Virus record (IMG/VR): IMGVR_UViG_2671180568_000005
Strand: one strand, 5' to 3'
Length of the DNA: 39,356 nucleotides
DNA from: a virus
Taxonomy: Duplodnaviria > Heunggongvirae > Uroviricota > Caudoviricetes
Shown here: piece by piece, positions 1,750 to 28,440 of the stretch
Numbering within the stretch: position 1 is the stretch's first letter
Layout of the letters: each line of letters starts with the position of its first letter
Made by a program: the position numbers and the translations under genes
Notes under the pieces: model-generated
What the model saw: the letters and a program-made list of their open reading frames with translations, nothing else
Databases searched by the model: none
Told to the model about the DNA's origin: nothing

Positions 1750-2091
1750 TCAGCCAACATTGCGGCCTGATCGGGGTGATTTTTGGGTAATACCGATTGA
1801 AACCTGATCGCCCTCCGACTGAATAGATCCATCAAGAGAGAGAGCCGGAGCAATCTGCCCGGCGACAGGTAGCGTCTTATCTTTTATTAGCCACAGCATG
1901 TATTTTTCAAAGCGATCGACTTGCAGAACCGCCTCAACGATTTTTGCTCTAGCGTTCTTTTGCCCCGATTCGTAATTCCTTATGGTTGCCAAAGACAACC
2001 CAGTAATATCCGCAAACTGCTTTTGTGTTAACCCTTCCGCCTTACGTATCTGACGTAACTTTTTTGCGTAGTCTATTGACAAGATAACCAT
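1750..2091 (-). CDS. Immunity repressor, XRE-type helix-turn-helix (P2 C-like position)
   Basis: HTH segment LTQKQFADITGLSLATIRNYESGQ; divergent from the early operon as in the P2/186 switch; start chosen at the internal Met with an upstream GAGAGG. Confidence 0.75.
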   Translation of the reverse strand: MVILSIDYAKKLRQIRKAEGLTQKQFADITGLSLATIRNYESGQKNARAKIVEAVLQVDRFEKYMLWLIKDKTLPVAGQIAPALSLDGSIQSEGDQVSIGITQKSPRSGRNVG

Positions 2092-2135
2092 TTGAGTATT
2101 AACCTCTCGCACAAAGATAACCTTTTGGTTATCTT
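2076..2135. promoter_or_regulatory. Switch region: TTGACA -35-like hexamer and two direct 9-bp repeats AAGATAACC (2081-2089, 2114-2122) plus an inverted copy (2127-2135)
   Basis: Repeats read directly; the position between the divergent repressor and cox-like genes matches the P2 operator arrangement. Confidence 0.5.
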
Positions 2136-2195
2136 TACAAGCCAAAACAAACCATCACAAGGCGCGACAAGCGCACCAACGCAAGAGGATAACAA

Positions 2196-2717
2196 ATGCG
2201 GGACTTCATTGCCGATAAAGAGTTATCTGACCACCAACCACTTCAGGAAAGTGACGCACTCAGCGGATCCATTGATGCCGCCAACGACGACGAGCACGAA
2301 GAAAACAAGAAAAAGCGTTCCTACAAAAAAGGAGCGACTTTGCGGCTGGATGGTCCGATCGCCGGGCTTTGCTCTCTGGAAAAAGGCGCGGCATATATTG
2401 GGCTAACAAAATCTGCACTGCGCGTAGCCATTCATCGCGGTCAAATGCCGGGACACAAAACACGCACAAACCCGGAAGATGAAAACTCAGACGGAGTATG
2501 GTGGTTTAACGCCAAAGAGTGGGACAAGTTGGCTGATGAGCTACCAGAGCACGAGCCCCCAGAATGGCACAACTGGAAAAGTTACTGGACGTATGACCGC
2601 CAGAAAAGGAAGTTCTCTCCAGCTAATAAAGAAGACTGCCAGACCATTAACGGTAAGCGAGTTTATACAGGCAGAAGCTCAAAACTGGACCAACTCAGAA
2701 ACAACAGAGGCAACTAA
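2196..2717 (+). CDS. Cox/Apl-like excisionase or early regulator (first gene of the early operon), longer than P2 Cox
   Basis: Position; HTH-like segment AAYIGLTKSALRVAIHRGQMP followed by an aromatic WWF motif as in Cox; AGAGGA ribosome-binding site upstream. Confidence 0.5.
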   Translation: MRDFIADKELSDHQPLQESDALSGSIDAANDDEHEENKKKRSYKKGATLRLDGPIAGLCSLEKGAAYIGLTKSALRVAIHRGQMPGHKTRTNPEDENSDGVWWFNAKEWDKLADELPEHEPPEWHNWKSYWTYDRQKRKFSPANKEDCQTINGKRVYTGRSSKLDQLRNNRGN

Positions 2718-2721
2718 TCGT

Positions 2722-3144
2722 ATGAAAACAAACACGTCAGATTTCACAATAACTATTTCAAAAAATGACCAAGCATTAATTGATAACCTGAAATACCTTG
2801 CGGAAAAACATAATAACGGACGAATTGCAATTAATTTACGACACATCACAGGAGTAACAATTGTAACCAGTTACTGGCATCTATATCTAATCGCTAAATC
2901 AGTACTTGAAAACAAAGATTCTGTTGTCAATGGAAGAGATATAGATACTCTTCCTGCACAAATCAAACCGATAGCCTATCAATTGCGTAATCGTTTTAAA
3001 AATGAAGGTGGGATTATATTTGACTTTCCCGCAGCTGTAGCCGTGAGCTTCTCTCGGGGGGATATACTTCACTCATTTCGTTTTGCTCTATCAGGTGACG
3101 AGACATTATGGCAGCTAGAAGATGCCGGGAGCAGCCCGGCATAA
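2722..3144 (+). CDS. Hypothetical protein in AT-rich island
   Basis: ORF of 140 aa starting MKTNTSDFTITISKNDQ; local GC is clearly lower than the flanks; no recognisable motif. Confidence 0.5.
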   Translation: MKTNTSDFTITISKNDQALIDNLKYLAEKHNNGRIAINLRHITGVTIVTSYWHLYLIAKSVLENKDSVVNGRDIDTLPAQIKPIAYQLRNRFKNEGGIIFDFPAAVAVSFSRGDILHSFRFALSGDETLWQLEDAGSSPA

Positions 3145-3150
3145 ATCAAA

Positions 3151-3342
3151 TTAAAAATCAACCAGTTGTGTGACAGGTGGGTATTTACGCTGAATTTTGT
3201 CAGTTACTAACGCCAGTAATATATGAATCTCTGTGTTTAATGCGTCTTTATCACCCGTCGTTTTTACCCTGGGAGGGTTAATGTTATCCAGAGCAGCACT
3301 AAGTTCACTCAACAAATTAACAACTTTTTTATCTTCTGACAT
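3151..3342 (-). CDS. Hypothetical small protein (63 aa), convergent with the 2722-3144 gene
   Basis: ORF in the same AT-rich island, 6 bp from the stop of the convergent partner. Confidence 0.4.
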   Translation of the reverse strand: MSEDKKVVNLLSELSAALDNINPPRVKTTGDKDALNTEIHILLALVTDKIQRKYPPVTQLVDF

Positions 3343-3479
3343 GAAAACCTCTTAACAATTTAATTAAACATAAGCCAGGACCTGAACCGGCCAGTCCAAG
3401 TCCTAGACACACAAAAAAAATACCACAAATCAATACAAGGTGACACGAGTACACCTTACCGAAGGTACAGAGTTTTAAT

Positions 3480-3830
3480 ATGAAACTACAGCGCAATTCT
3501 TCACAGCAGCGCTTCCGCAACGGTGCGGAACGCCATGCTAACCGTTTCGCTACCAGTGCATCACGTAGCAACTCTCGCTACAGCCTGAGCGAAACACACG
3601 CAACGCCGGATGGCTACCCAGTAAAACAAATTGGTGAACACACTTGGCTGATTGAAAAAGCAGGAATCGTGGTTCACAGATGCCAGCGCAACCCATTTAC
3701 CGGAAACCGCATTTTTGCACTGAGCAACGGCGACAATCAGTTCGGGCAGGATTTCACATTATACGAAGCACTTCGCACGGTTGATCGTCTGCTTCACGGG
3801 CAAAGTTTTATTAAACAGGCTGATTTATAA
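3480..3830 (+). CDS. Hypothetical early-region protein
   Basis: ORF of 116 aa, co-directional with the early operon. Confidence 0.5.
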   Translation: MKLQRNSSQQRFRNGAERHANRFATSASRSNSRYSLSETHATPDGYPVKQIGEHTWLIEKAGIVVHRCQRNPFTGNRIFALSNGDNQFGQDFTLYEALRTVDRLLHGQSFIKQADL

Positions 3831-3840
3831 CAGGTGCTTT

Positions 3841-4119
3841 ATGACCAAAGAGCATGCACAAGGTGTATTTATCCGTTTTATTGATTTTCGCGGTGAACTG
3901 TTATTACGCGCATCAGCCATTGACGGAGTTGTTCCATCCGAAAAAAATGCAGCTACTTACGTTTATCTGAACGGCACGCGCCTGACCGTAGAACTTCCGT
4001 ACCAGACTGTACACGAAATCATTAGCGAAGCGGAAAAAGCACGTAAGACTAATGGCGATGAACCCTATATCGAAATTATTTGTATGGATTCAGAAGCAGA
4101 AATTCAGAAAGCAGATTAA
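3841..4119 (+). CDS. Hypothetical early-region protein
   Basis: ORF from the internal Met MTKEHAQG; tight spacing to neighbours. Confidence 0.5.
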   Translation: MTKEHAQGVFIRFIDFRGELLLRASAIDGVVPSEKNAATYVYLNGTRLTVELPYQTVHEIISEAEKARKTNGDEPYIEIICMDSEAEIQKAD

Positions 4120-4130
4120 AGGGCGTTGCG

Positions 4131-4373
4131 ATGGGCAAAGAATATAAAACTCTCATTAACAAAGCACTTGAGCGTTTTTATTTTCGCTTAAGTGCATCAG
4201 GCGCTCATGCTGAACGTGCAGCCCGTGACTCATTGACCAGGGCAATCCGGAGTCTGTATGACGTGGCTTTTTACGCTGATGATCTGGATGCACTTAACGA
4301 ACTTTCCGAGCTGATCTGTGCCGCAGAATGCGGGGAACATATTGAACCGTATAAGCTGGGGAATATCGCATGA
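4131..4373 (+). CDS. Hypothetical early-region protein
   Basis: ORF from MGKEYKTL; its stop overlaps the next start (ATGA). Confidence 0.5.
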   Translation: MGKEYKTLINKALERFYFRLSASGAHAERAARDSLTRAIRSLYDVAFYADDLDALNELSELICAAECGEHIEPYKLGNIA

Positions 4374-5773: not shown

Positions 5774-6095
5774 GAAACCAGAACATGCACACACAAAAAA
5801 ACCGCTTGCCATGCCGCAATCAGTCAGGTTACATTTCCGCTGCACCTCATAAAACGGGTGCCGGGTTTCGCAGCCCGCTGACAAACGTAGCGCACAACCG
5901 CGCCAGCGGTTTTTTTGTGCGTACTGTATCGCCACGTCTTTTTCGCATCAGAATTATGGTGGGGCGTACGGGGCCGACTTCGGTCGGGCCGGGTTCTGCG
6001 TTTGCCGGTACTGCGAACCTCGTACGTCTCGCCACCCACAGTTTCGCAGCTCTGGATGGTGAGTTTTCAAAACTTACACACGTAGAGGCCACACC

Positions 6096-6326
6096 ATGGC
6101 AAACCGCAAACAGCACCGCGCTATCGCGGAGCGTCGTCACATCCAGACTGAAATCAACCGCAGACTTTCCCGCGCATCACGCGTCGCGCAAATCATGCAC
6201 ATCAATATGCTGCATGAGCGCAGCCACGCACTATCAAACATTTATTCCGCCGCTGTTTTCAGCTATCTGGCGGATGATCTGCACGAGCTTCAACAGCTCA
6301 TCCAGCAGCAAAACAAACTCCATTAA
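6096..6326 (+). CDS. Hypothetical small basic protein
   Basis: ORF of 76 aa with a weak ribosome-binding site; overlapped by an implausible 205-aa ORF in another frame. Confidence 0.3.
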   Translation: MANRKQHRAIAERRHIQTEINRRLSRASRVAQIMHINMLHERSHALSNIYSAAVFSYLADDLHELQQLIQQQNKLH

Positions 6327-6398
6327 TTCCTGTTCCGGGCCTTTCCTGCACCTTGCGGCGGGAGGCCTTCGCACATCTGTAGCAAGAGGATTGCCGCA

Positions 6399-6764
6399 AT
6401 GATTCTCGCCAACGACTTTCTTGAATACCTGCTCAACACAGAACGTGATCTTGCCGCTCGCGTGCGTGATCGTTATGACATGTACCTGAAATCCCTGCCT
6501 GTACCGCAGCTCGCTGACGGAAAAATTGTTATTGATGGTCGCTACATGATCGACAGCCATGAGGGAAATTACAGGCTTTACCGCATTGAAGGTGGCACCC
6601 CGTCCGTTATTGGCATTTACCAGCACCCATCCTCTGCAATCGTCGATGTGATTGCCGACAGCATCCGCATCACACATCGCCATGCCGACACAGAAGACAC
6701 CGTGCTGGAAATTCAGCGGCTGGCTACAGTCTGCCGCGACACCCTGAATGGCATGACGAAGTAA
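6399..6764 (+). CDS. Hypothetical protein immediately upstream of the replicase
   Basis: ORF of 121 aa. Confidence 0.5.
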   Translation: MILANDFLEYLLNTERDLAARVRDRYDMYLKSLPVPQLADGKIVIDGRYMIDSHEGNYRLYRIEGGTPSVIGIYQHPSSAIVDVIADSIRITHRHADTEDTVLEIQRLATVCRDTLNGMTK

Positions 6765-6770
6765 ATCACT

Positions 6771-9593
6771 ATGACGGCAGAGTACATCAGGGACTGGCAG
6801 CAACCGCGCCACGCAGTGGGGCGTGAAGGAACGGGGATCCCCGCTCCTGAATCCGCGCTTTCCTCCTGGCTGGATGCCTACCGGGCAGAGAACGAGCGCT
6901 GCCAGGAAATGGCTGATGCGGCGTTCTCCGCCACACCGCTGGGCAACCTGATTAATAAAAGCCTGGACGCACAGGAAAAACAGGACAAAACCATCACACT
7001 GGCAGGAGACGCCAGAAAACGGGCACGCGGCGCGGTGGATGAAGCCATGGCCTCGCTGCGCCTGCTGCCGTCCTATCTGCGCGATCCGCTTATTCGCCAC
7101 CTCTCCTTCCTGCGCAAAAAACAGGAAGCCGATCGCCGGAAAGGCAAAAAGAGCTGGCAGGCGGAACGCTATGCACGCGGAACCCTGCGCAAAATATTCG
7201 AACGTCTGGATCGCACTGACAGACGCTGGCTGACACCGGGTTATCGCTCCCTTGTCGGACGCGAACGCCTGGACGATTTGCTTTACCTGCCGCAGCTCAA
7301 CAAACACCAGATACAGACGCTGGCCACCATGACGGCGGCGATGTTCAGCAGCACCTTCGAAAAACTCTGCGATGGCTTTGGCGCGACTGATGGCGAACTG
7401 ACCATGGATGTAACGCTGAAGGCGTATCAGATGCTGGCCCGCATGGCGTTACACCTGCACGCCATGCCTCCACATTATGACGCACTGACAACAGACAAAG
7501 ACCGGAGGAACGAACCGGACACGGAGCTGCTGCCGGGCGCAATCCTCCGCCTGACCTGTGCGGAATGGTGGAAACGCAAACTGTGGCTGTTACGTTGCGA
7601 GTGGAGAGAAGAACAACTCCGCGCCGCCTGTCTGGTTTCCAGAAAAACATCGCCCTATCTGAGCCAGGGCGCGTTAAGCGAGTTTCGCGCACAGCGCGAG
7701 AAAACACGCGATTTCCTGAAAAGTTTCATGCTGGAAAACGAAGACGGGTTCACGATTGATCTCGAGACAGTGTATTACGCGGGAGTAAGTAACCCGGTTC
7801 ACCGTAAGGCAGAAATGATGGCCACCATGAAGGGGCTGGAACTTCTGGCCGAAGCCCGTGGCGACAAAGCGGTGTTTCTGACTGTCACCTGCCCGTCAAA
7901 ATACCACGCCACAACAGAGAACGGTCATCCGAATCCCAAATGGAACGGGGCCACCATGCGCGACTCCAGCGATTACCTGGTTAACACGTTTTTTGCAGCG
8001 GTCCGCAAAAAACTGAACCGCGACGGCCTGCGCTGGTATGGCATCCGCACGGTGGAGCCTCACCATGACGGCACCGTGCACTGGCATATGATGGTCTTTG
8101 CTCATCCGGAAGAAATCGACACCATTGTGTCCCACACCCGCGATATTGCCATTCAGGAAGACCGCCACGAGCTGGGCAATGATATTACTCCGCGCTTTAA
8201 GGTGGAGTATGTCGACGGCTCAAAAGGCACACCAACCAGCTACATCGCCACCTACATCGGAAAGAACCTGGACAGCCGCGCCGTGGATGGCATCGACCCG
8301 AAAACGGGCAAGCCACGCGTTGACCACGAAACCGGAAAATCAATGGCCGAGAGCGTGGAGCGTGCCATCGGCTGGGCGCGCCTTCACCGGGTCCGCCAGT
8401 TCCAGTTCTTTGGTATCCCCTCCCGTCAGGTGTGGCGTGAACTGCGTCGCCTTGCCAGCCAGATGGCACGCAACCCGGAAGGACCGCAACGGCTGAAGGA
8501 TGACGCAATGGACGCGGTTCTTGCTGCCGCTGATGCCGGATGTTTTGCCACCTACATAGAGAAACAGGGCGGCGTACTTGTTCCACGCAAAGACTACCTG
8601 ATTCGCACCGCCTACGACCTCGCAGATGAGCTGAACGATTACGGCGAACAGAGCGTACAGATTTACGGGATCTGGTCGCCGCTCATTGGGGTATCTTCCC
8701 GCGTATGCACGCATCCGGATAACTGGAAGCTGGTAAGACGCAAACCGGAAGCGGAAGACAGCGCCCGCGAAAATGGTTTTGACCTTCAGGGCGGCCCTGC
8801 CGCCCCTTGGACTCGTGGCAATAACTGTCCCCGTGTACAGGAAACGGACAACAACGGGACAGAACAGCCGGAAGAACGGCCAGCACCGTGGCCGCAGCTC
8901 CCTGACGGCGTTGAAGTGAACGAATGGATGCGCTCACTGAAACGGCACGAACGCCGGGCGCTGATGCGTTCGCTTCGTGACAAACAGGCAAAAAACAGCA
9001 GTGATGAAATGCAGAGCTGGACACAGAGCCGCAAACAGCAGCGGCCTTTGCCTGATAACCACGAATTACTCGCTAAAGAATGGCGGGAGTCTGCCGAATC
9101 TCTCGGCCTGCATATCGGTGAACAGCAGATGCAGCACCTGTTACGGGGCGGCAGTCTGTACGTTGACGGCAGCATCATTGCACCGCAGGGATTTGAAATT
9201 GTACGCAAACCGGATACCCGACCGGACAGCCGGATCACGCAGCTCTGGCAGCGCCTGAGCCGTAACCACGGCGTAAGCAGCACGGAGATCCGCCATAACC
9301 CGGTCGCCAGCTATCTGGAACAGCTGGGGGCATCAGACCCCGAAGCCGCCGCACGCCTGGCATCCACACTTCAGCAAGACCAGAACACCATGAAAACACC
9401 CGTTACCGTGCTTTCTGACATGCTGCGCGCCATCCGCGACGCAGAGCACGCACAGAGAATCAGTGAAACCACTGAACGCGCCCGCCGCAAAGCAGACCTG
9501 CTGCGAGGTGGCCTGACCAGTGGAAACAAAAAACAGACAGAAACGGGATTCACAAATCCCGTAAATGAGCAAAAAACGCGCCGCGATATATGA
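6771..9593 (+). CDS. A: Rolling-circle replication initiator (P2 gpA-like HUH endonuclease), 940 aa
   Basis: HUH motif TVHWHMMVF and catalytic tyrosine pair SYIATYIGK; position after the early genes. Confidence 0.85.
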   Translation: MTAEYIRDWQQPRHAVGREGTGIPAPESALSSWLDAYRAENERCQEMADAAFSATPLGNLINKSLDAQEKQDKTITLAGDARKRARGAVDEAMASLRLLPSYLRDPLIRHLSFLRKKQEADRRKGKKSWQAERYARGTLRKIFERLDRTDRRWLTPGYRSLVGRERLDDLLYLPQLNKHQIQTLATMTAAMFSSTFEKLCDGFGATDGELTMDVTLKAYQMLARMALHLHAMPPHYDALTTDKDRRNEPDTELLPGAILRLTCAEWWKRKLWLLRCEWREEQLRAACLVSRKTSPYLSQGALSEFRAQREKTRDFLKSFMLENEDGFTIDLETVYYAGVSNPVHRKAEMMATMKGLELLAEARGDKAVFLTVTCPSKYHATTENGHPNPKWNGATMRDSSDYLVNTFFAAVRKKLNRDGLRWYGIRTVEPHHDGTVHWHMMVFAHPEEIDTIVSHTRDIAIQEDRHELGNDITPRFKVEYVDGSKGTPTSYIATYIGKNLDSRAVDGIDPKTGKPRVDHETGKSMAESVERAIGWARLHRVRQFQFFGIPSRQVWRELRRLASQMARNPEGPQRLKDDAMDAVLAAADAGCFATYIEKQGGVLVPRKDYLIRTAYDLADELNDYGEQSVQIYGIWSPLIGVSSRVCTHPDNWKLVRRKPEAEDSARENGFDLQGGPAAPWTRGNNCPRVQETDNNGTEQPEERPAPWPQLPDGVEVNEWMRSLKRHERRALMRSLRDKQAKNSSDEMQSWTQSRKQQRPLPDNHELLAKEWRESAESLGLHIGEQQMQHLLRGGSLYVDGSIIAPQGFEIVRKPDTRPDSRITQLWQRLSRNHGVSSTEIRHNPVASYLEQLGASDPEAAARLASTLQQDQNTMKTPVTVLSDMLRAIRDAEHAQRISETTERARRKADLLRGGLTSGNKKQTETGFTNPVNEQKTRRDI

Positions 9594-21292: not shown

Positions 21293-23169
21293 CCAGTAAG
21301 AACTTTGCACTGATTACAGCCATGACACAGGCTGAACTGACTCAAAAGGTGAATGAACATCTTGCGAAAGGGTGGCATCTTCAGGGGGAGACGCGGGTTG
21401 CCTACGAACCCGGCACCCCGTGGTATCTAATGCAGGCAATGGTGGCCGATGGCACTACAGACATCTCACCTGATTCCCCCCAGCACGGCAGCGTGCCGGA
21501 GTGGTATTACGTGGTGGTACTTGCTGGTCAATCCAATGCCATGTCATATGGTGATGGAATGCCGCTGCCGGATTCTTACGATGCGCCCCACCCACGCATT
21601 AAGCAACTGGCCCGTCGCAACACAGTGACTCCCGGTGGTAAAGCATGCGCATTTAACGACATCATTCCGGCAGACCACTGCCTGCATGATGTTCAGGATA
21701 TGAGCGCACTGAATCATCCGAAGGCAGACCTGAGCAAAGGGCAGTACGGCTGTGTCGGCCAGGGCTTACATATTGCCAAAAAACTGCTCCCGTATATCCC
21801 GAATAACGCGGGGATCCTGCTGGTACCATGCTGCCGTGGTGGTTCGGCATTCACTCAGGGCGCGGAGGGAACATTCAGTACGACCACGGGGGCCAGCCAG
21901 GATTCGGCGCGCTGGGGTGTGGGTAAACCGTTATATCAGGACCTGATTGCGCGCACTAAAGCTGCATTACAGAAGAACCCGAAAAATGTGTTGCTGGCGG
22001 TGTGCTGGATGCAGGGCGAATTTGACATGAGCGCTGCCACCTACGCACAGCAACCGGACCTGTTCACGGCCATGCTGAAGCAGTTCCGTACTGACCTTTC
22101 CGGATTTAACGCGCAGTGCCATGGCGGCAGTGCTGCAGTTGTACCGTGGATTTGTGGCGACACGACGTATTACTGGAAAAACACATACGGCACACAGTAT
22201 GACTCCGTCTACGGCGCGTACAAAAACAGGGAGAGCGACAACGTTTTCTTTGTGCCGTTCATGACCGACGGTAACGGCAACAACACACCCACCAACTTAC
22301 CGGCAGAAGACCCGGATATTGCTGATGCAGGTTATTACGGCGCGCAATCCCGTAGTAATGGTAATTGGGTATCGTCAAATCGTCCGACACATTTCAGTTC
22401 ATGGGCGCGCAGGGGCATTATTTCGGATCGCCTGGCAACCGCTATTCTGAACGCAGTTGGTCGAACCAGCGCCTTCATCAGCGGTACCGCACCGGAGATT
22501 AAACCCTCNNNNNNNNNNNNNNNNNNNNNNNNNNNNNNNNNNNNNNNNNNNNNNNNNNNNNNNNNNNNNNNNNNNNNNNNNNNNNNNNNNNNNNNNNNNN
22601 NNNNNNNNNNNNNNNNNNNNNNNNNNNNNNNNNNNNNNNNNNNNNNNNNNNNNNNNNNNNNNNNNNNNNNNNNNNNNNNNNNNNNNNNNNNNNNNNNNNN
22701 NNNNNNNNNNNNNNNNNNNNNNNNNNNNNNNNNNNNNNNNNNNNNNNNNNNNNNNNNNNNNNNNNNNNNNNNNNNNNNNNNNNNNNNNNNNNNNNNNNNN
22801 NNNNNNNNNNNNNNNNNNNNNNNNNNNNNNNNNNNNNNNNNNNNNNNNNNNNNNNNNNNNNNNNNNNNNNNNNNNNNNNNNNNNNNNNNNNNNNNNNNNN
22901 NNNNNNNNNNNNNNNNNNNNNNNNNNNNNNNNNNNNNNNNNNNNNNNNNNNNNNNNNNNNNNNNNNNNNNNNNNNNNNNNNNNNNNNNNNNNNNNNNNNN
23001 CACGGTTACTCCGAAACTGAATGGAGTGGCTGGCCCGGCATTCCAGGTCATAAAAGACAGTCTGACACTGGGGCTGAATGCGCTGACGTTAACTGATATC
23101 ACTAAAAATGCCGCGTACGGCGTCGATATCGGCAGCCTGGTGCTGGAAATCAATAATCCCGCAGTATAA
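21289..23169 (+). CDS. NanS-p-like sialate O-acetylesterase (DUF1737-like N-domain plus SASA/SGNH domain); interior replaced by a 492-N gap
   Basis: N-terminus ITAMTQAELTQKVNEHLAKGWHLQGE and esterase block VVVLAGQSNAMSYGDG (GQSN motif); residues encoded by 22509-23000 are unknown. Confidence 0.65.
   Translation: MTSKNFALITAMTQAELTQKVNEHLAKGWHLQGETRVAYEPGTPWYLMQAMVADGTTDISPDSPQHGSVPEWYYVVVLAGQSNAMSYGDGMPLPDSYDAPHPRIKQLARRNTVTPGGKACAFNDIIPADHCLHDVQDMSALNHPKADLSKGQYGCVGQGLHIAKKLLPYIPNNAGILLVPCCRGGSAFTQGAEGTFSTTTGASQDSARWGVGKPLYQDLIARTKAALQKNPKNVLLAVCWMQGEFDMSAATYAQQPDLFTAMLKQFRTDLSGFNAQCHGGSAAVVPWICGDTTYYWKNTYGTQYDSVYGAYKNRESDNVFFVPFMTDGNGNNTPTNLPAEDPDIADAGYYGAQSRSNGNWVSSNRPTHFSSWARRGIISDRLATAILNAVGRTSAFISGTAPEIKPXXXXXXXXXXXXXXXXXXXXXXXXXXXXXXXXXXXXXXXXXXXXXXXXXXXXXXXXXXXXXXXXXXXXXXXXXXXXXXXXXXXXXXXXXXXXXXXXXXXXXXXXXXXXXXXXXXXXXXXXXXXXXXXXXXXXXXXXXXXXXXXXXXXXXXXXXXXXXXXXXXXXXTVTPKLNGVAGPAFQVIKDSLTLGLNALTLTDITKNAAYGVDIGSLVLEINNPAV
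22509..23000. other. Gap (492 N) inside the esterase gene
   Basis: Run of n characters. Confidence 0.99.
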
Positions 23170-26714: not shown

Positions 26715-28440
26715 CAGTGAAATACTACGCCATTCTGACTAATCAGGGCGCGGCACGACTGGCTAACGCGACGATGCTCGGCAGTAAGCTGAATCTGACG
26801 CGAATGGCCGTTGGTGATGCAAATGGTGTGTTACCAACACCAGACCCTGCACAAACAAAACTGATTAACCAGAAACGCATTGCACCGCTGAATCTTCTGA
26901 GTGTTGACCCTAACAATCAGAGCCAGATTATTGCGGAGCAAATCATCCCTGAAAGCGAGGGTGGATTCTGGATCCGTGAGATTGGTCTTTATGATGATAA
27001 AGGTGTACTCATTGCGGTGGCAAACTGCCCGGAAACGTACAAACCGCAGTTGCAGGAAGGCAGTGGACGCACCCAGACTATCCGCATGATTCTGGTTGTC
27101 ACGAACACCGAAGCCATCACGCTGAAAATCGACCCGTCTGTGGTTCTGGCAACCCGCAAATATGTGGATGATAAAATATCAGAGCACGAGCAGTCACGAC
27201 GTCACCCGGACGCCTCGCTGACCGCAAAAGGCTTTGTTCAACTTAGCAGTGCCACGGACAGTCAATCAGAAACTGAGGCTGCCACGCCGAAGGCTGTGAA
27301 AATCGCGTATGATCTGGCCCGGGGAAAATACACAGCCCAGGATGCAACAACGACCCGTAAAGGGATCGTACAACTGAGCAGCGCCACCAACAGCACCTCT
27401 GAAACGCTGGCCGCCACACCAAAAGCCGTCAAGGCTGCATACGACCTTGCAGCCGGCAAGGCGCCCGTCAGCCACACTCACCCGTGGAGTCAGATAACGG
27501 GAGTGCCTGCTGCCTCGCTGACGGCAAAAGGCACCGTACAACTGAGCAGTGCCATCAACAGCACGTCTGAAATACTGGCCGCCACACCGAAAGCGGTCAA
27601 GGCTGCATACGATCTGGCAGCCGGCAAGGCGCCCGTCAGCCACACTCACCCGTGGAGTCAGATAACGGGAGTGCCTGCTGCCTCGCTGACGGCAAAAGGC
27701 ACCGTACAACTGAGCAGTGCCATCAACAGCACGTCTGAAATACTGGCCGCCACACCGAAAGCGGTCAAGGCTGCATACGATCTGGCAAACGGAAAACAAC
27801 CGGCAGATGCCACGCTCACTGCTCTGGCAGGACTTGCCACTGCAGCAGATCGGTTGCCTTATTTTACCGGAGCAGACCGCGCAGCGCTGGCAACCCTTAC
27901 AGCTATTGGTCGCGCTATTATCGCTAAGGGCAGTATAAAAGATGTCCTCAATTACCTTGGTTTNNNNNNNNNNTTGGTTTGGGGGAAGGCTCTGCATTGC
28001 CTGTTGGTGTACCGGTTCCATGGCCCACCGCCACACCGCCAGCAGGCTGGTTACAGTGCAACGGAGCTACGTTCACCAAAGAACAATATCCTGTTCTGGC
28101 CAGAGTCTACCCGACCCTCCGTCTTCCCGATTTGCGCGGTGAGTTTATCCGTGGATGGGACGGTGGTCGCAAGGTTGATACCGGGCGTGCGCTACTTTCA
28201 TTTCAGGAAGGGACTATCGTATCCGGTTTTGATGATAATGATAACGGAGATATCAGTTCGCTCGGCTCTACACAATACGGATTTGGTGACGCTTTAACCT
28301 CTAATCAACTGGGGGTCTTAAATGGCAAAAAGTGGATATTTGATGCATCCTCTAAAGGTGCACAAAGATATGACTGGTGGGCTTATGTATCAGCTCGCCC
28401 CCGCAATATCGCATTTAACTATATCGTGAGGGCGGCGTGA
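26711..28440 (+). CDS. H: Tail fibre protein (gpH-like): constant part fused to a variable tip; reading frame apparently broken by the 10-N gap
   Basis: N-terminus MTVKYYAILTNQGAARLANA; repeated fibre motif TAKGxVQLSSA...TPKAVKAAYDLA; after the gap the frame 27979..28440 continues with GEGSALPVGVPVPWPTATPPAGW and ends NYIVRAA. Confidence 0.75.
27451..27786 (+). repeat. Perfect tandem duplication of a 168-bp (56-codon) unit inside the fibre gene
   Basis: 27451-27618 repeats at 27619-27786; two older diverged copies of the motif lie upstream. Confidence 0.85.
27964..27973. other. Scaffold gap (10 N) at the constant/variable fibre junction
   Basis: Run of n characters; ttggttt is present on both sides. 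Confidence 0.99.

Follow-up and report, generated by a model that had tools for sequence, protein, structure and literature searches.

The window analysed here is the 39,356-nucleotide (nt) stretch of IMG/VR record IMGVR_UViG_2671180568_000005 (Caudoviricetes), a P88-like prophage of Escherichia coli (Xuanwuvirus, Peduoviridae, P2 family) of the sequence type 131 (ST131)/UTI89 kind. Directly after the gene for its Cox-like regulator lies an AT-rich island of two convergent genes, here called big (140 amino acids, aa; plus strand) and small (63 aa; minus strand), which appears to be a mobile cassette in a variable slot of the P2-like (P88-type) early lytic operon. The explanation ranked first, with a probability of about 0.4, is that small encodes an immune protein expressed in the lysogen and big its cognate neutraliser, made early in the lytic cycle. 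It takes this rank because the architecture matches that of the recently described TERi and Tai/Ati class of prophage systems. The architecture is of a known kind; the protein families and the slot are undescribed in the libraries and literature searched. What the sequences show directly is the anatomy of the island, its accessory status, a pair of genes that is conserved and diverges together, and a promoter motif kept among the alleles.

Both open reading frames (ORFs) lie exactly at the coordinates given in an earlier note on this DNA, which had described a convergent pair of 140 and 63 aa right after cox in a patch of lower G+C content (GC). A GC profile places the minimum of the window at this island: none of 730 sliding segments of 762 base pairs (bp; mean GC 0.53, standard deviation 0.044) is as low. 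Third codon positions have 29% GC in big and 31% in small, compared with 48–53% in the flanking cox and DUF4761 genes. The overall GC of these flanking genes is 49–50%, and the average of the whole window is 53%. The contrast is real yet not extreme, because neighbouring early genes are also somewhat AT-rich (41–47% GC). The big ORF has the orientation of the early operon and starts 4 nt past the cox stop codon, while its own stop codon faces that of small across 6 nt.

The cassette is not a fixed part of these prophages. Among 5426 complete E. coli genomes, the DUF4761-type prophage region is found in 1352 and the C/cox type of the window in 324, of which 270 have the window-type island; the overall count for the island is 270–272, EC958 and UTI89 included. 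Three phage records, one from O25b:H4-ST131, are 99.9% identical to positions 2100–4200, while in P88 and other Xuanwuviruses similarity to this region begins only at the start of DUF4761. The slot is empty in P88, BCE049 and strain 272, where DUF4761 directly follows cox, and in the comparison with EC581 homology breaks at the cox stop codon and returns at the ribosome-binding site of DUF4761. EC581 and F95, of the same cox type, carry a plus-strand gene for a 68-aa protein with two transmembrane segments, and their repressor alleles are those beside the island in WS1933D/ETEC1701 and UTI89. Other contents of the slot are a 64-aa soluble plus-strand protein, an unrelated convergent pair of 117 aa (plus) and 155 aa (minus), and a recombinant in which residues 1–120 of a big-family protein continue into a new tail and face a minus-strand gene of the ECs1072 family. 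In PRO_A-1504 both genes are cleanly deleted between CTA microhomologies (about 2712 to 3403). The idea of an imported accessory cassette is thus borne out by absence from P88 and many syntenic prophages, exchange for other cargo beside the same repressor and one precise deletion; it is not kept in all relatives. Wherever the slot holds a minus-strand gene, a plus-strand gene converges on it, and a lone minus-strand gene was seen 0 times. Within E. coli the island has 5 variable sites in the 423 nt of big and 3 in the 192 nt of small and is less diverged than its flanks, and in UTI89 it is 99% identical to the window while the C-cox region is 88% identical. This lower divergence relative to the flanks points to horizontal spread of the cassette.

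At locus L052 (handles of this form are our own) the slot holds an unrelated convergent pair at 2195–2548 (plus) and 2540–3007 (minus), which match phrog_10410 and phrog_9021, both of unknown function, and have the same leftward promoter; this arrangement suggests that the slot generally hosts pairs of plus- and minus-strand genes.

Relatives of the pair are highly diverged. Word-indexed searches of 5.8 billion protein clusters returned near-identical E. coli copies only. An exhaustive HMMER search found a 138-aa Salmonella protein 33–34% identical to the big protein, and a profile search then gave a third relative. The contigs of these relatives are P2-like prophages with the gene downstream of int, repressor and cox, and the convergent minus-strand ORFs of L007 (62 aa) and L009 (called as 70 aa) are 39–40% identical to the 63-aa protein of the window. 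Further alleles come from the IMG/VR contigs L028 and L040 and from E. coli strains JNEC-KY174 and 48; the last two are unlinked to the island by DNA search and connected to it by hhalign (P=5e-6 for big, 1.4e-8 for small). Altogether there are at least seven diverged alleles in the early operon of P2-like prophages (E. coli, Salmonella and the two IMG/VR contigs), with identities of 16–35% for big and 26–45% for small, and with DNA too diverged for megablast. All seven pairs are convergent, their 3' ends lying from 13 nt apart to 7 nt overlapping, and they always stand in the early operon 3' of cox, with neighbours that differ between alleles. A big-family and a small-family gene are adjacent in 7/7 alleles, the partner lying within the lytic operon, and from one pair of alleles to the next the divergence of the big protein is correlated with that of the small protein (Spearman 0.74). 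Small is the more conserved partner; its ORF length (60–64 aa), start, stop position, ribosome-binding site and motifs are kept across the seven alleles. Between two close Salmonella-type alleles the ratio of nonsynonymous to synonymous substitution rates (dN/dS) is 0.58 for big (25 differences) and 0.25 for small (2 differences). Judged from these sequences, both ORFs are real protein-coding genes that travel as a unit. A tblastn search with four family members against 50,697 phage records (expectation value E≤1) returned the window's own allele only, and metagenome and further viral scans added 0 new alleles.

In the Salmonella-type alleles, big and the next plus-strand gene open with the same stretch of about 32 nt, a ribosome-binding site plus ATGAAACTCACCATCGAAGAT (MKLTIED), the copies lying at 5986–6021 and 6751–6786 in L007, 615–650 and 1334–1369 in L009, and 3739–3774 and 4446–4481 in L028. 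This direct repeat flanks the cassette and may be the recombination junction of its insertion. Early-region proteins of 131–134 aa beside the pair (L009 229–633; L040 5685–6080) are faintly similar to the N-terminal part of the scaffold/protease GpO (Pfam PF05929; the L040 copy has E=0.008).

The signals around small (Table 1) recur among the alleles. TGnTATnnT, with a background frequency of 8.9e-5 per nt, precedes the minus-strand gene in 9/9 cassette versions examined, two of them with an unrelated minus-strand gene. It reads TGGTATTTT in the window and L051, TGCTATGTT or TGTTATGTT in L007 and L040, TGCTATCTT in L009 and L028, and TGGTATTCT in L048, and ends 64–74 nt before the ATG (34 nt in L048). 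A 5' stem-loop of differing sequence directly follows the motif in six of the seven alleles (window, L007, L009, L028, L040 and L051) and is weak in L048. The dyad over the –35 region of the window is replaced in other alleles by different GC-rich dyads at the same place and is a possible regulator site or insulator hairpin. Stem-loops were found at the 3' end in 4/4 alleles folded (window, L048 with a U-run, L051 with z=–4.8 and L007 with z=–4.5), and that of the window is a candidate 3' end or terminator of the small transcript. Since one shared promoter and stem-loop sequence stands ahead of three unrelated minus-strand genes in L051, L052 and L004, the leftward promoter appears to belong to the slot, with the minus-strand genes as interchangeable cargo. 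On the grounds of the motif upstream and the stem-loops on both sides, small is predicted to form a unit complete in itself that interrupts the early operon. This agrees with the proposal of the earlier note that the island has its own regulation, as far as a conserved extended –10 motif and predicted 5' and 3' stem-loops can speak for it. Variable presence, 38% against 53% GC and the predicted promoter motif with flanking stem-loops also give the island the features of a moron or lysogenic-conversion cassette. A half-site resemblance to a LexA box 5' of small, seen by eye, was rejected, and Rfam gave no match in the island (2000–4200 covered).

For big, no promoter of its own was found in the window. 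A scan between big and DUF4761 likewise gave no terminator or promoter on the plus strand, so the early transcript should include big and cross small in antisense. Small thus sits on the minus strand between cox–big and the series from DUF4761 to gpA, all on the plus strand. An opposite-strand gene interrupting a lytic operon is by definition a noncontiguous operon; the expression that goes with this layout is predicted.

Table 1. Features of the island and of its surroundings in the window
Feature	Position	Strand	Remarks
AT-rich accessory cassette in the cox/DUF4761 slot	2718–3479		38.1% GC, lowest 762-bp segment of 39 kb
big gene	2722–3144	+	140 aa, ATG..TAA, soluble, undescribed family; homologues at the same position in seven alleles
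small gene	3151–3342	–	63 aa, ATG..TAA, soluble; homologues 24–45% identical, always converging on a big-family gene
3' stem-loop ATGCCGGG-CTGCT-CCCGGCAT	3122–3142	–	inside the 3' end of big, right after the small stop codon; –13.7 kcal/mol
Shine-Dalgarno AAGAGG	3348–3353	–	5 nt 5' of the small ATG; read from sequence
14-bp stem-loop	3375–3406	–	predicted 5' end of the small mRNA; –21.7 kcal/mol, z=–3.0
Extended –10 motif TGGTATTTT	3417–3425	–	candidate promoter, 74 nt 5' of the small ATG
Dyad AAGGTG-N9-CACCTT	3437–3457	–	over the –35 region of the putative promoter; read from sequence
Integrase gene	688–1695	–	left end of window
CI/C-type repressor gene	1750–2145	–	left end of window
Cox-like regulator/excisionase gene	2196–2717	+	173 aa; gene 1 of the early (Pe-type) operon, left border of slot; PF10743 (Phage_Cox) E=1.9e-7, phrog_23196 E=1e-116
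DUF4761 gene	3480–3830	+	next early-operon gene, right border of slot; Pfam PF15958 E=2e-68

Both proteins are hydrophilic (grand average of hydropathy –0.17 to –0.63), near-neutral to mildly acidic and soluble, and no membrane-spanning segments or Cys/His motifs are present in either. An AlphaFold2 model predicts the small protein to be a two-helix hairpin (helices 3–21 and 31–53; predicted local distance difference test, pLDDT, 68), for which Foldseek found no match in the PDB. In its family the N-terminus (M-x-E/Y-D-x-K/E-hydrophobic-hydrophobic-x-L/M-L) and a KYP motif are conserved. The AlphaFold2 models of both proteins were each computed from one sequence, with no family members yet identified. 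The big protein may contain an internal duplication of a helix-strand-strand-helix unit, its two halves aligning in hhalign with P=6e-4, which is suggestive only. Scans of the window pair and the six further alleles against Pfam, PHROGs, NCBIfam and PADLOC gave nothing (Pfam and NCBIfam at E≤0.01), no model of known anti-phage systems in PADLOC-DB v2 matched any of them, and PDB sequence searches with the family profiles gave nothing meaningful. Literature searched by accession holds no mention of the pair. Within these libraries and this literature the two families and the cox/DUF4761 slot are undescribed, and the earlier note's failure to recognise a motif is matched by remote-homology and structure searches that gave no Pfam, PHROG, NCBIfam, PADLOC or PDB relative. 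Several leads were dropped: matches to DUF1408/phrog_5450 were weak (E about 0.02–0.04) and confined to one member, a Tum/DinI-like strand-helix-strand-strand-helix fold received an hhalign probability of 0.3%, and the big protein of E. albertii has a C-terminal extension weakly resembling the first helix of the small protein, which could hint at a gene fusion, at a level that is not significant (hhalign P=0.0018, probability 15%).

In the immune-and-neutraliser reading, the small protein would be constitutive in the lysogen, expressed from the extended –10 promoter by way of 5' stem-loop, ribosome-binding site, ORF and 3' stem-loop, and would act on incoming phages as a prophage-expressed immune or exclusion factor. 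The big protein would appear only once the early promoter is active, during infection or induction, since big lacks its own promoter and lies so close behind cox, and it would neutralise the small protein at the onset of the prophage's own lytic cycle. Transcription of the early operon would run head-on across small to DUF4761 and gene A, and this convergent transcription would also damp small. We infer this expression pattern, together with a physical interaction of the two proteins and an anti-phage activity. The diversity of alleles in the slot within one species and the dN/dS of big are compatible with genes in conflict.

The closest parallel is TERi of Listeria phage phi10403S, in which TerI (65 aa) is the product of a minus-strand gene within the early lytic module. 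This gene has its own promoter and is transcribed constitutively during lysogeny; TerI keeps invading phages from packaging, and two early-operon proteins (anti-TerI1,2) neutralise it on induction. The terI promoter is conserved in 96% of comK prophages, where other genes are found in exchange behind it (bioRxiv 10.1101/2025.02.27.640495). In the present cassette, likewise, the minus-strand gene is of 60–64 aa, a conserved leftward promoter motif stands before three unrelated genes, and the early operon holds a plus-strand partner. It differs in having no sequence similarity, as far as the phages compared are among the 50,697 records searched, in belonging to a P2-like myovirus of Enterobacterales, in having one partner instead of two, and in that its genes abut at their 3' ends whereas the overlap in TERi is full. 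Tai/Ati of phi80 and Tha/Ith of Staphylococcus aureus prophages are immune/counter-immune pairs in noncontiguous operons, with the immune gene constitutive in the lysogen, the counter-defence lytic-only, and the cognate versions binding each other (PMC11364771, PMC11087260). Here too an opposite-strand gene interrupts a lytic operon that holds the adjacent partner; however, Tai is a 26-kDa protein in a late, Q-controlled operon, while the small protein is of 7 kDa and its gene lies in the early operon directly after cox, and there is no homology. Superinfection exclusion, which the earlier note had offered, has to be divided: the membrane type does not fit two soluble proteins devoid of membrane-spanning segments, and the phage-exclusion class of TERi and Tai/Ati is the better fit to the layout.

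With respect to location, the known major defence hotspot of P2-like prophages lies between gpA and gpQ and another in the tail genes, while the int-to-gpA interval is a minor one, with 8% of their recognisable defence systems in a 2026 survey (P2/P4 hotspots: PMC9122126, PMC13586616). Like the classical P2 lysogenic-conversion genes old, tin and Z/fun, the island is AT-rich cargo whose presence varies at a set place in otherwise syntenic P2-like prophages. It differs from them in its slot, in being a two-gene convergent unit within the early operon, and in not being recognised by PADLOC.

Several points weigh against the immune-and-neutraliser reading. The pair resembles no family in PADLOC, PHROGs or Pfam, nor TerI, Tai or Ati as far as their phages are among the records searched, and the model of the big protein (pLDDT 42) is unusable, which leaves it with no usable fold. 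The correlated divergence of the two proteins could come from linkage alone, and variable sites within E. coli are too few for dN/dS to speak of selection there. E. albertii and E. coli E300010 combine residues 1–120 of a big-family protein with the unrelated ECs1072-family minus-strand gene; either this speaks against a strict pairing of cognates, or it is the mark of a recombinant. The promoter of small is a prediction from its motif. Finally, the 3' stem-loop of the window has no good U-tract, so the small transcript may read on in antisense through big and cox, and such read-through would fit a purely regulatory role as well.

A regulatory role is the substance of one competing explanation, in which the leftward promoter and the small protein would stabilise lysogeny, through convergent interference, antisense RNA against the early operon, or action of the small protein on a phage or host regulator, and big would be an early counter-regulator. 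The oop RNA and CIII of phage lambda are an analogy. The cassette adjoins the immunity region, the small transcript would oppose the early operon with a poor terminator at its end, and the small protein is the more conserved partner, all of which would suit a modulator. There is also a precedent in coliphage 186, where pE, a leftward, CII-activated promoter at the apl-cII junction, just 3' of cox/apl, is set against the early lytic operon, as in the interference of pR and pL; pE, however, drives cI-int and has no protein of its own, while here the extended –10 motif stands ahead of a conserved protein gene between predicted stem-loops. The main difficulty is that the same C repressor alleles, with nearly the same cox, work with the pair, with the membrane-protein cassette or with nothing, so the pair is not in the core switch. 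The island has no C-operator repeats (AAGATAACC), similarity to CII, Fil and Tum/DinI was rejected (hhalign probabilities <1%), and unrelated minus-strand genes under the same promoter suggest cargo and not a regulator. We regard a modulator as doubtful. It is very improbable that the 63-aa ORF is no gene at all, leaving antisense RNA only or nothing: it is short, has no known family and shows three variable sites within E. coli, but its length, start, stop, ribosome-binding site and motifs are kept at 24–45% identity, and its most distant allele is recovered by hhalign with P=1.4e-8.

The two remaining alternatives concern how the genes relate to each other. If big were a host-takeover or growth-arresting early protein, small could be its lysogen-expressed antidote against leaky expression, or the trigger of abortive infection when titrated. 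The genes are tightly linked, kept together and co-diverging, and a small helical protein is a plausible binder; like a type II toxin-antitoxin, they are two small, co-inherited genes on a mobile element. However, in all alleles they converge instead of forming an operon, a DNA-binding antitoxin domain is lacking in the small protein, the big protein belongs to no known toxin family, and their expression is predicted in opposite states of the life cycle. Big would in any case already be silenced by the repressor in the lysogen. As neither product is hydrophobic and Rfam finds no antisense RNA in 2000–4200, the pair is not type I-like either. The clean loss of both genes in PRO_A-1504 is compatible both with addiction and with its absence. 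The toxin-antitoxin pair proposed in the earlier note thus fails, as a classical system of type I or type II, on its defining features and is unlikely, and the looser toxin-antidote arrangement we also consider rather improbable. Equally hard to favour is the view that two independent cargo genes share the slot, big as an early anti-host-defence or host-modifying gene and small as an unrelated lysogenic-conversion gene on the slot's leftward promoter. That promoter does precede unrelated minus-strand genes, a big-family N-terminal region is found with an ECs1072-family partner, and single plus-strand genes also fill the slot. Against this, seven alleles keep both genes with abutting or overlapping ends and correlated divergence, and neither family occurs alone in about 5.8 billion protein clusters, save for one recombinant.

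A bolder extension of the immune-and-neutraliser reading, which we hold only tentatively and would not expect to be right, is that big/small pairs are new allele-specific exclusion/anti-exclusion modules, a second, protein-based layer of 'immunity type' for P2-like prophages. The small protein of a lysogen would stop incoming phages, P2-like or other, at an early step, and escape would be open only to a phage whose early operon has the matching big allele in second place, the slot being a general expression platform with a resident leftward promoter. Such modules would explain why many deeply diverged, matched alleles are found in one slot. The prophage that holds the cassette is present in about 5% of complete E. 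coli genomes; the pandemic lineage ST131 (EC958) and UTI89, a model uropathogen, are among its carriers, and both genes are annotated only as hypothetical. If the immune-and-neutraliser reading is true, they would add a new family pair to the prophage immune systems with built-in self-immunity and extend this class to the P2-like early operon, and the cox/DUF4761 interval would be a new cargo slot with a resident promoter, minable for small defence and counter-defence genes missed by domain-based tools.

The rest of the early region follows DUF4761 on the plus strand, with a 92-aa gene, DUF4754 and further genes up to the replication gene A (6771–9593). Within it, Rfam places isrK (5842–5916) and a C4 antisense RNA (5952–6039) directly 5' of ORF 6096–6326, annotated elsewhere as 'derepression protein'; the segment 5842–6326 is a P1/P7 immI-like antirepressor module under antisense-RNA control. 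A DUF4761 protein 88% identical to that of the window occurs in L005 (NZ_JBQPOM010000071.1), a contig of a Firmicute assembly labelled 'Vagococcus sp. WN89Y', and is probably enterobacterial contamination. At the left end of the window, an IS200-type transposase ORF (1–489, minus) and its STnc490 RNA (448–571) lie beside the prophage integrase, where dmsA is found about 300 bp away in other strains. The window contains three runs of N (88–97, 22509–23000 and 27964–27973). A 357-aa ORF (6234–7307, minus), antisense to the GC-rich start of gene A and the genes upstream of it, is probably spurious, such ORFs being common in the antisense frames of GC-rich genes.

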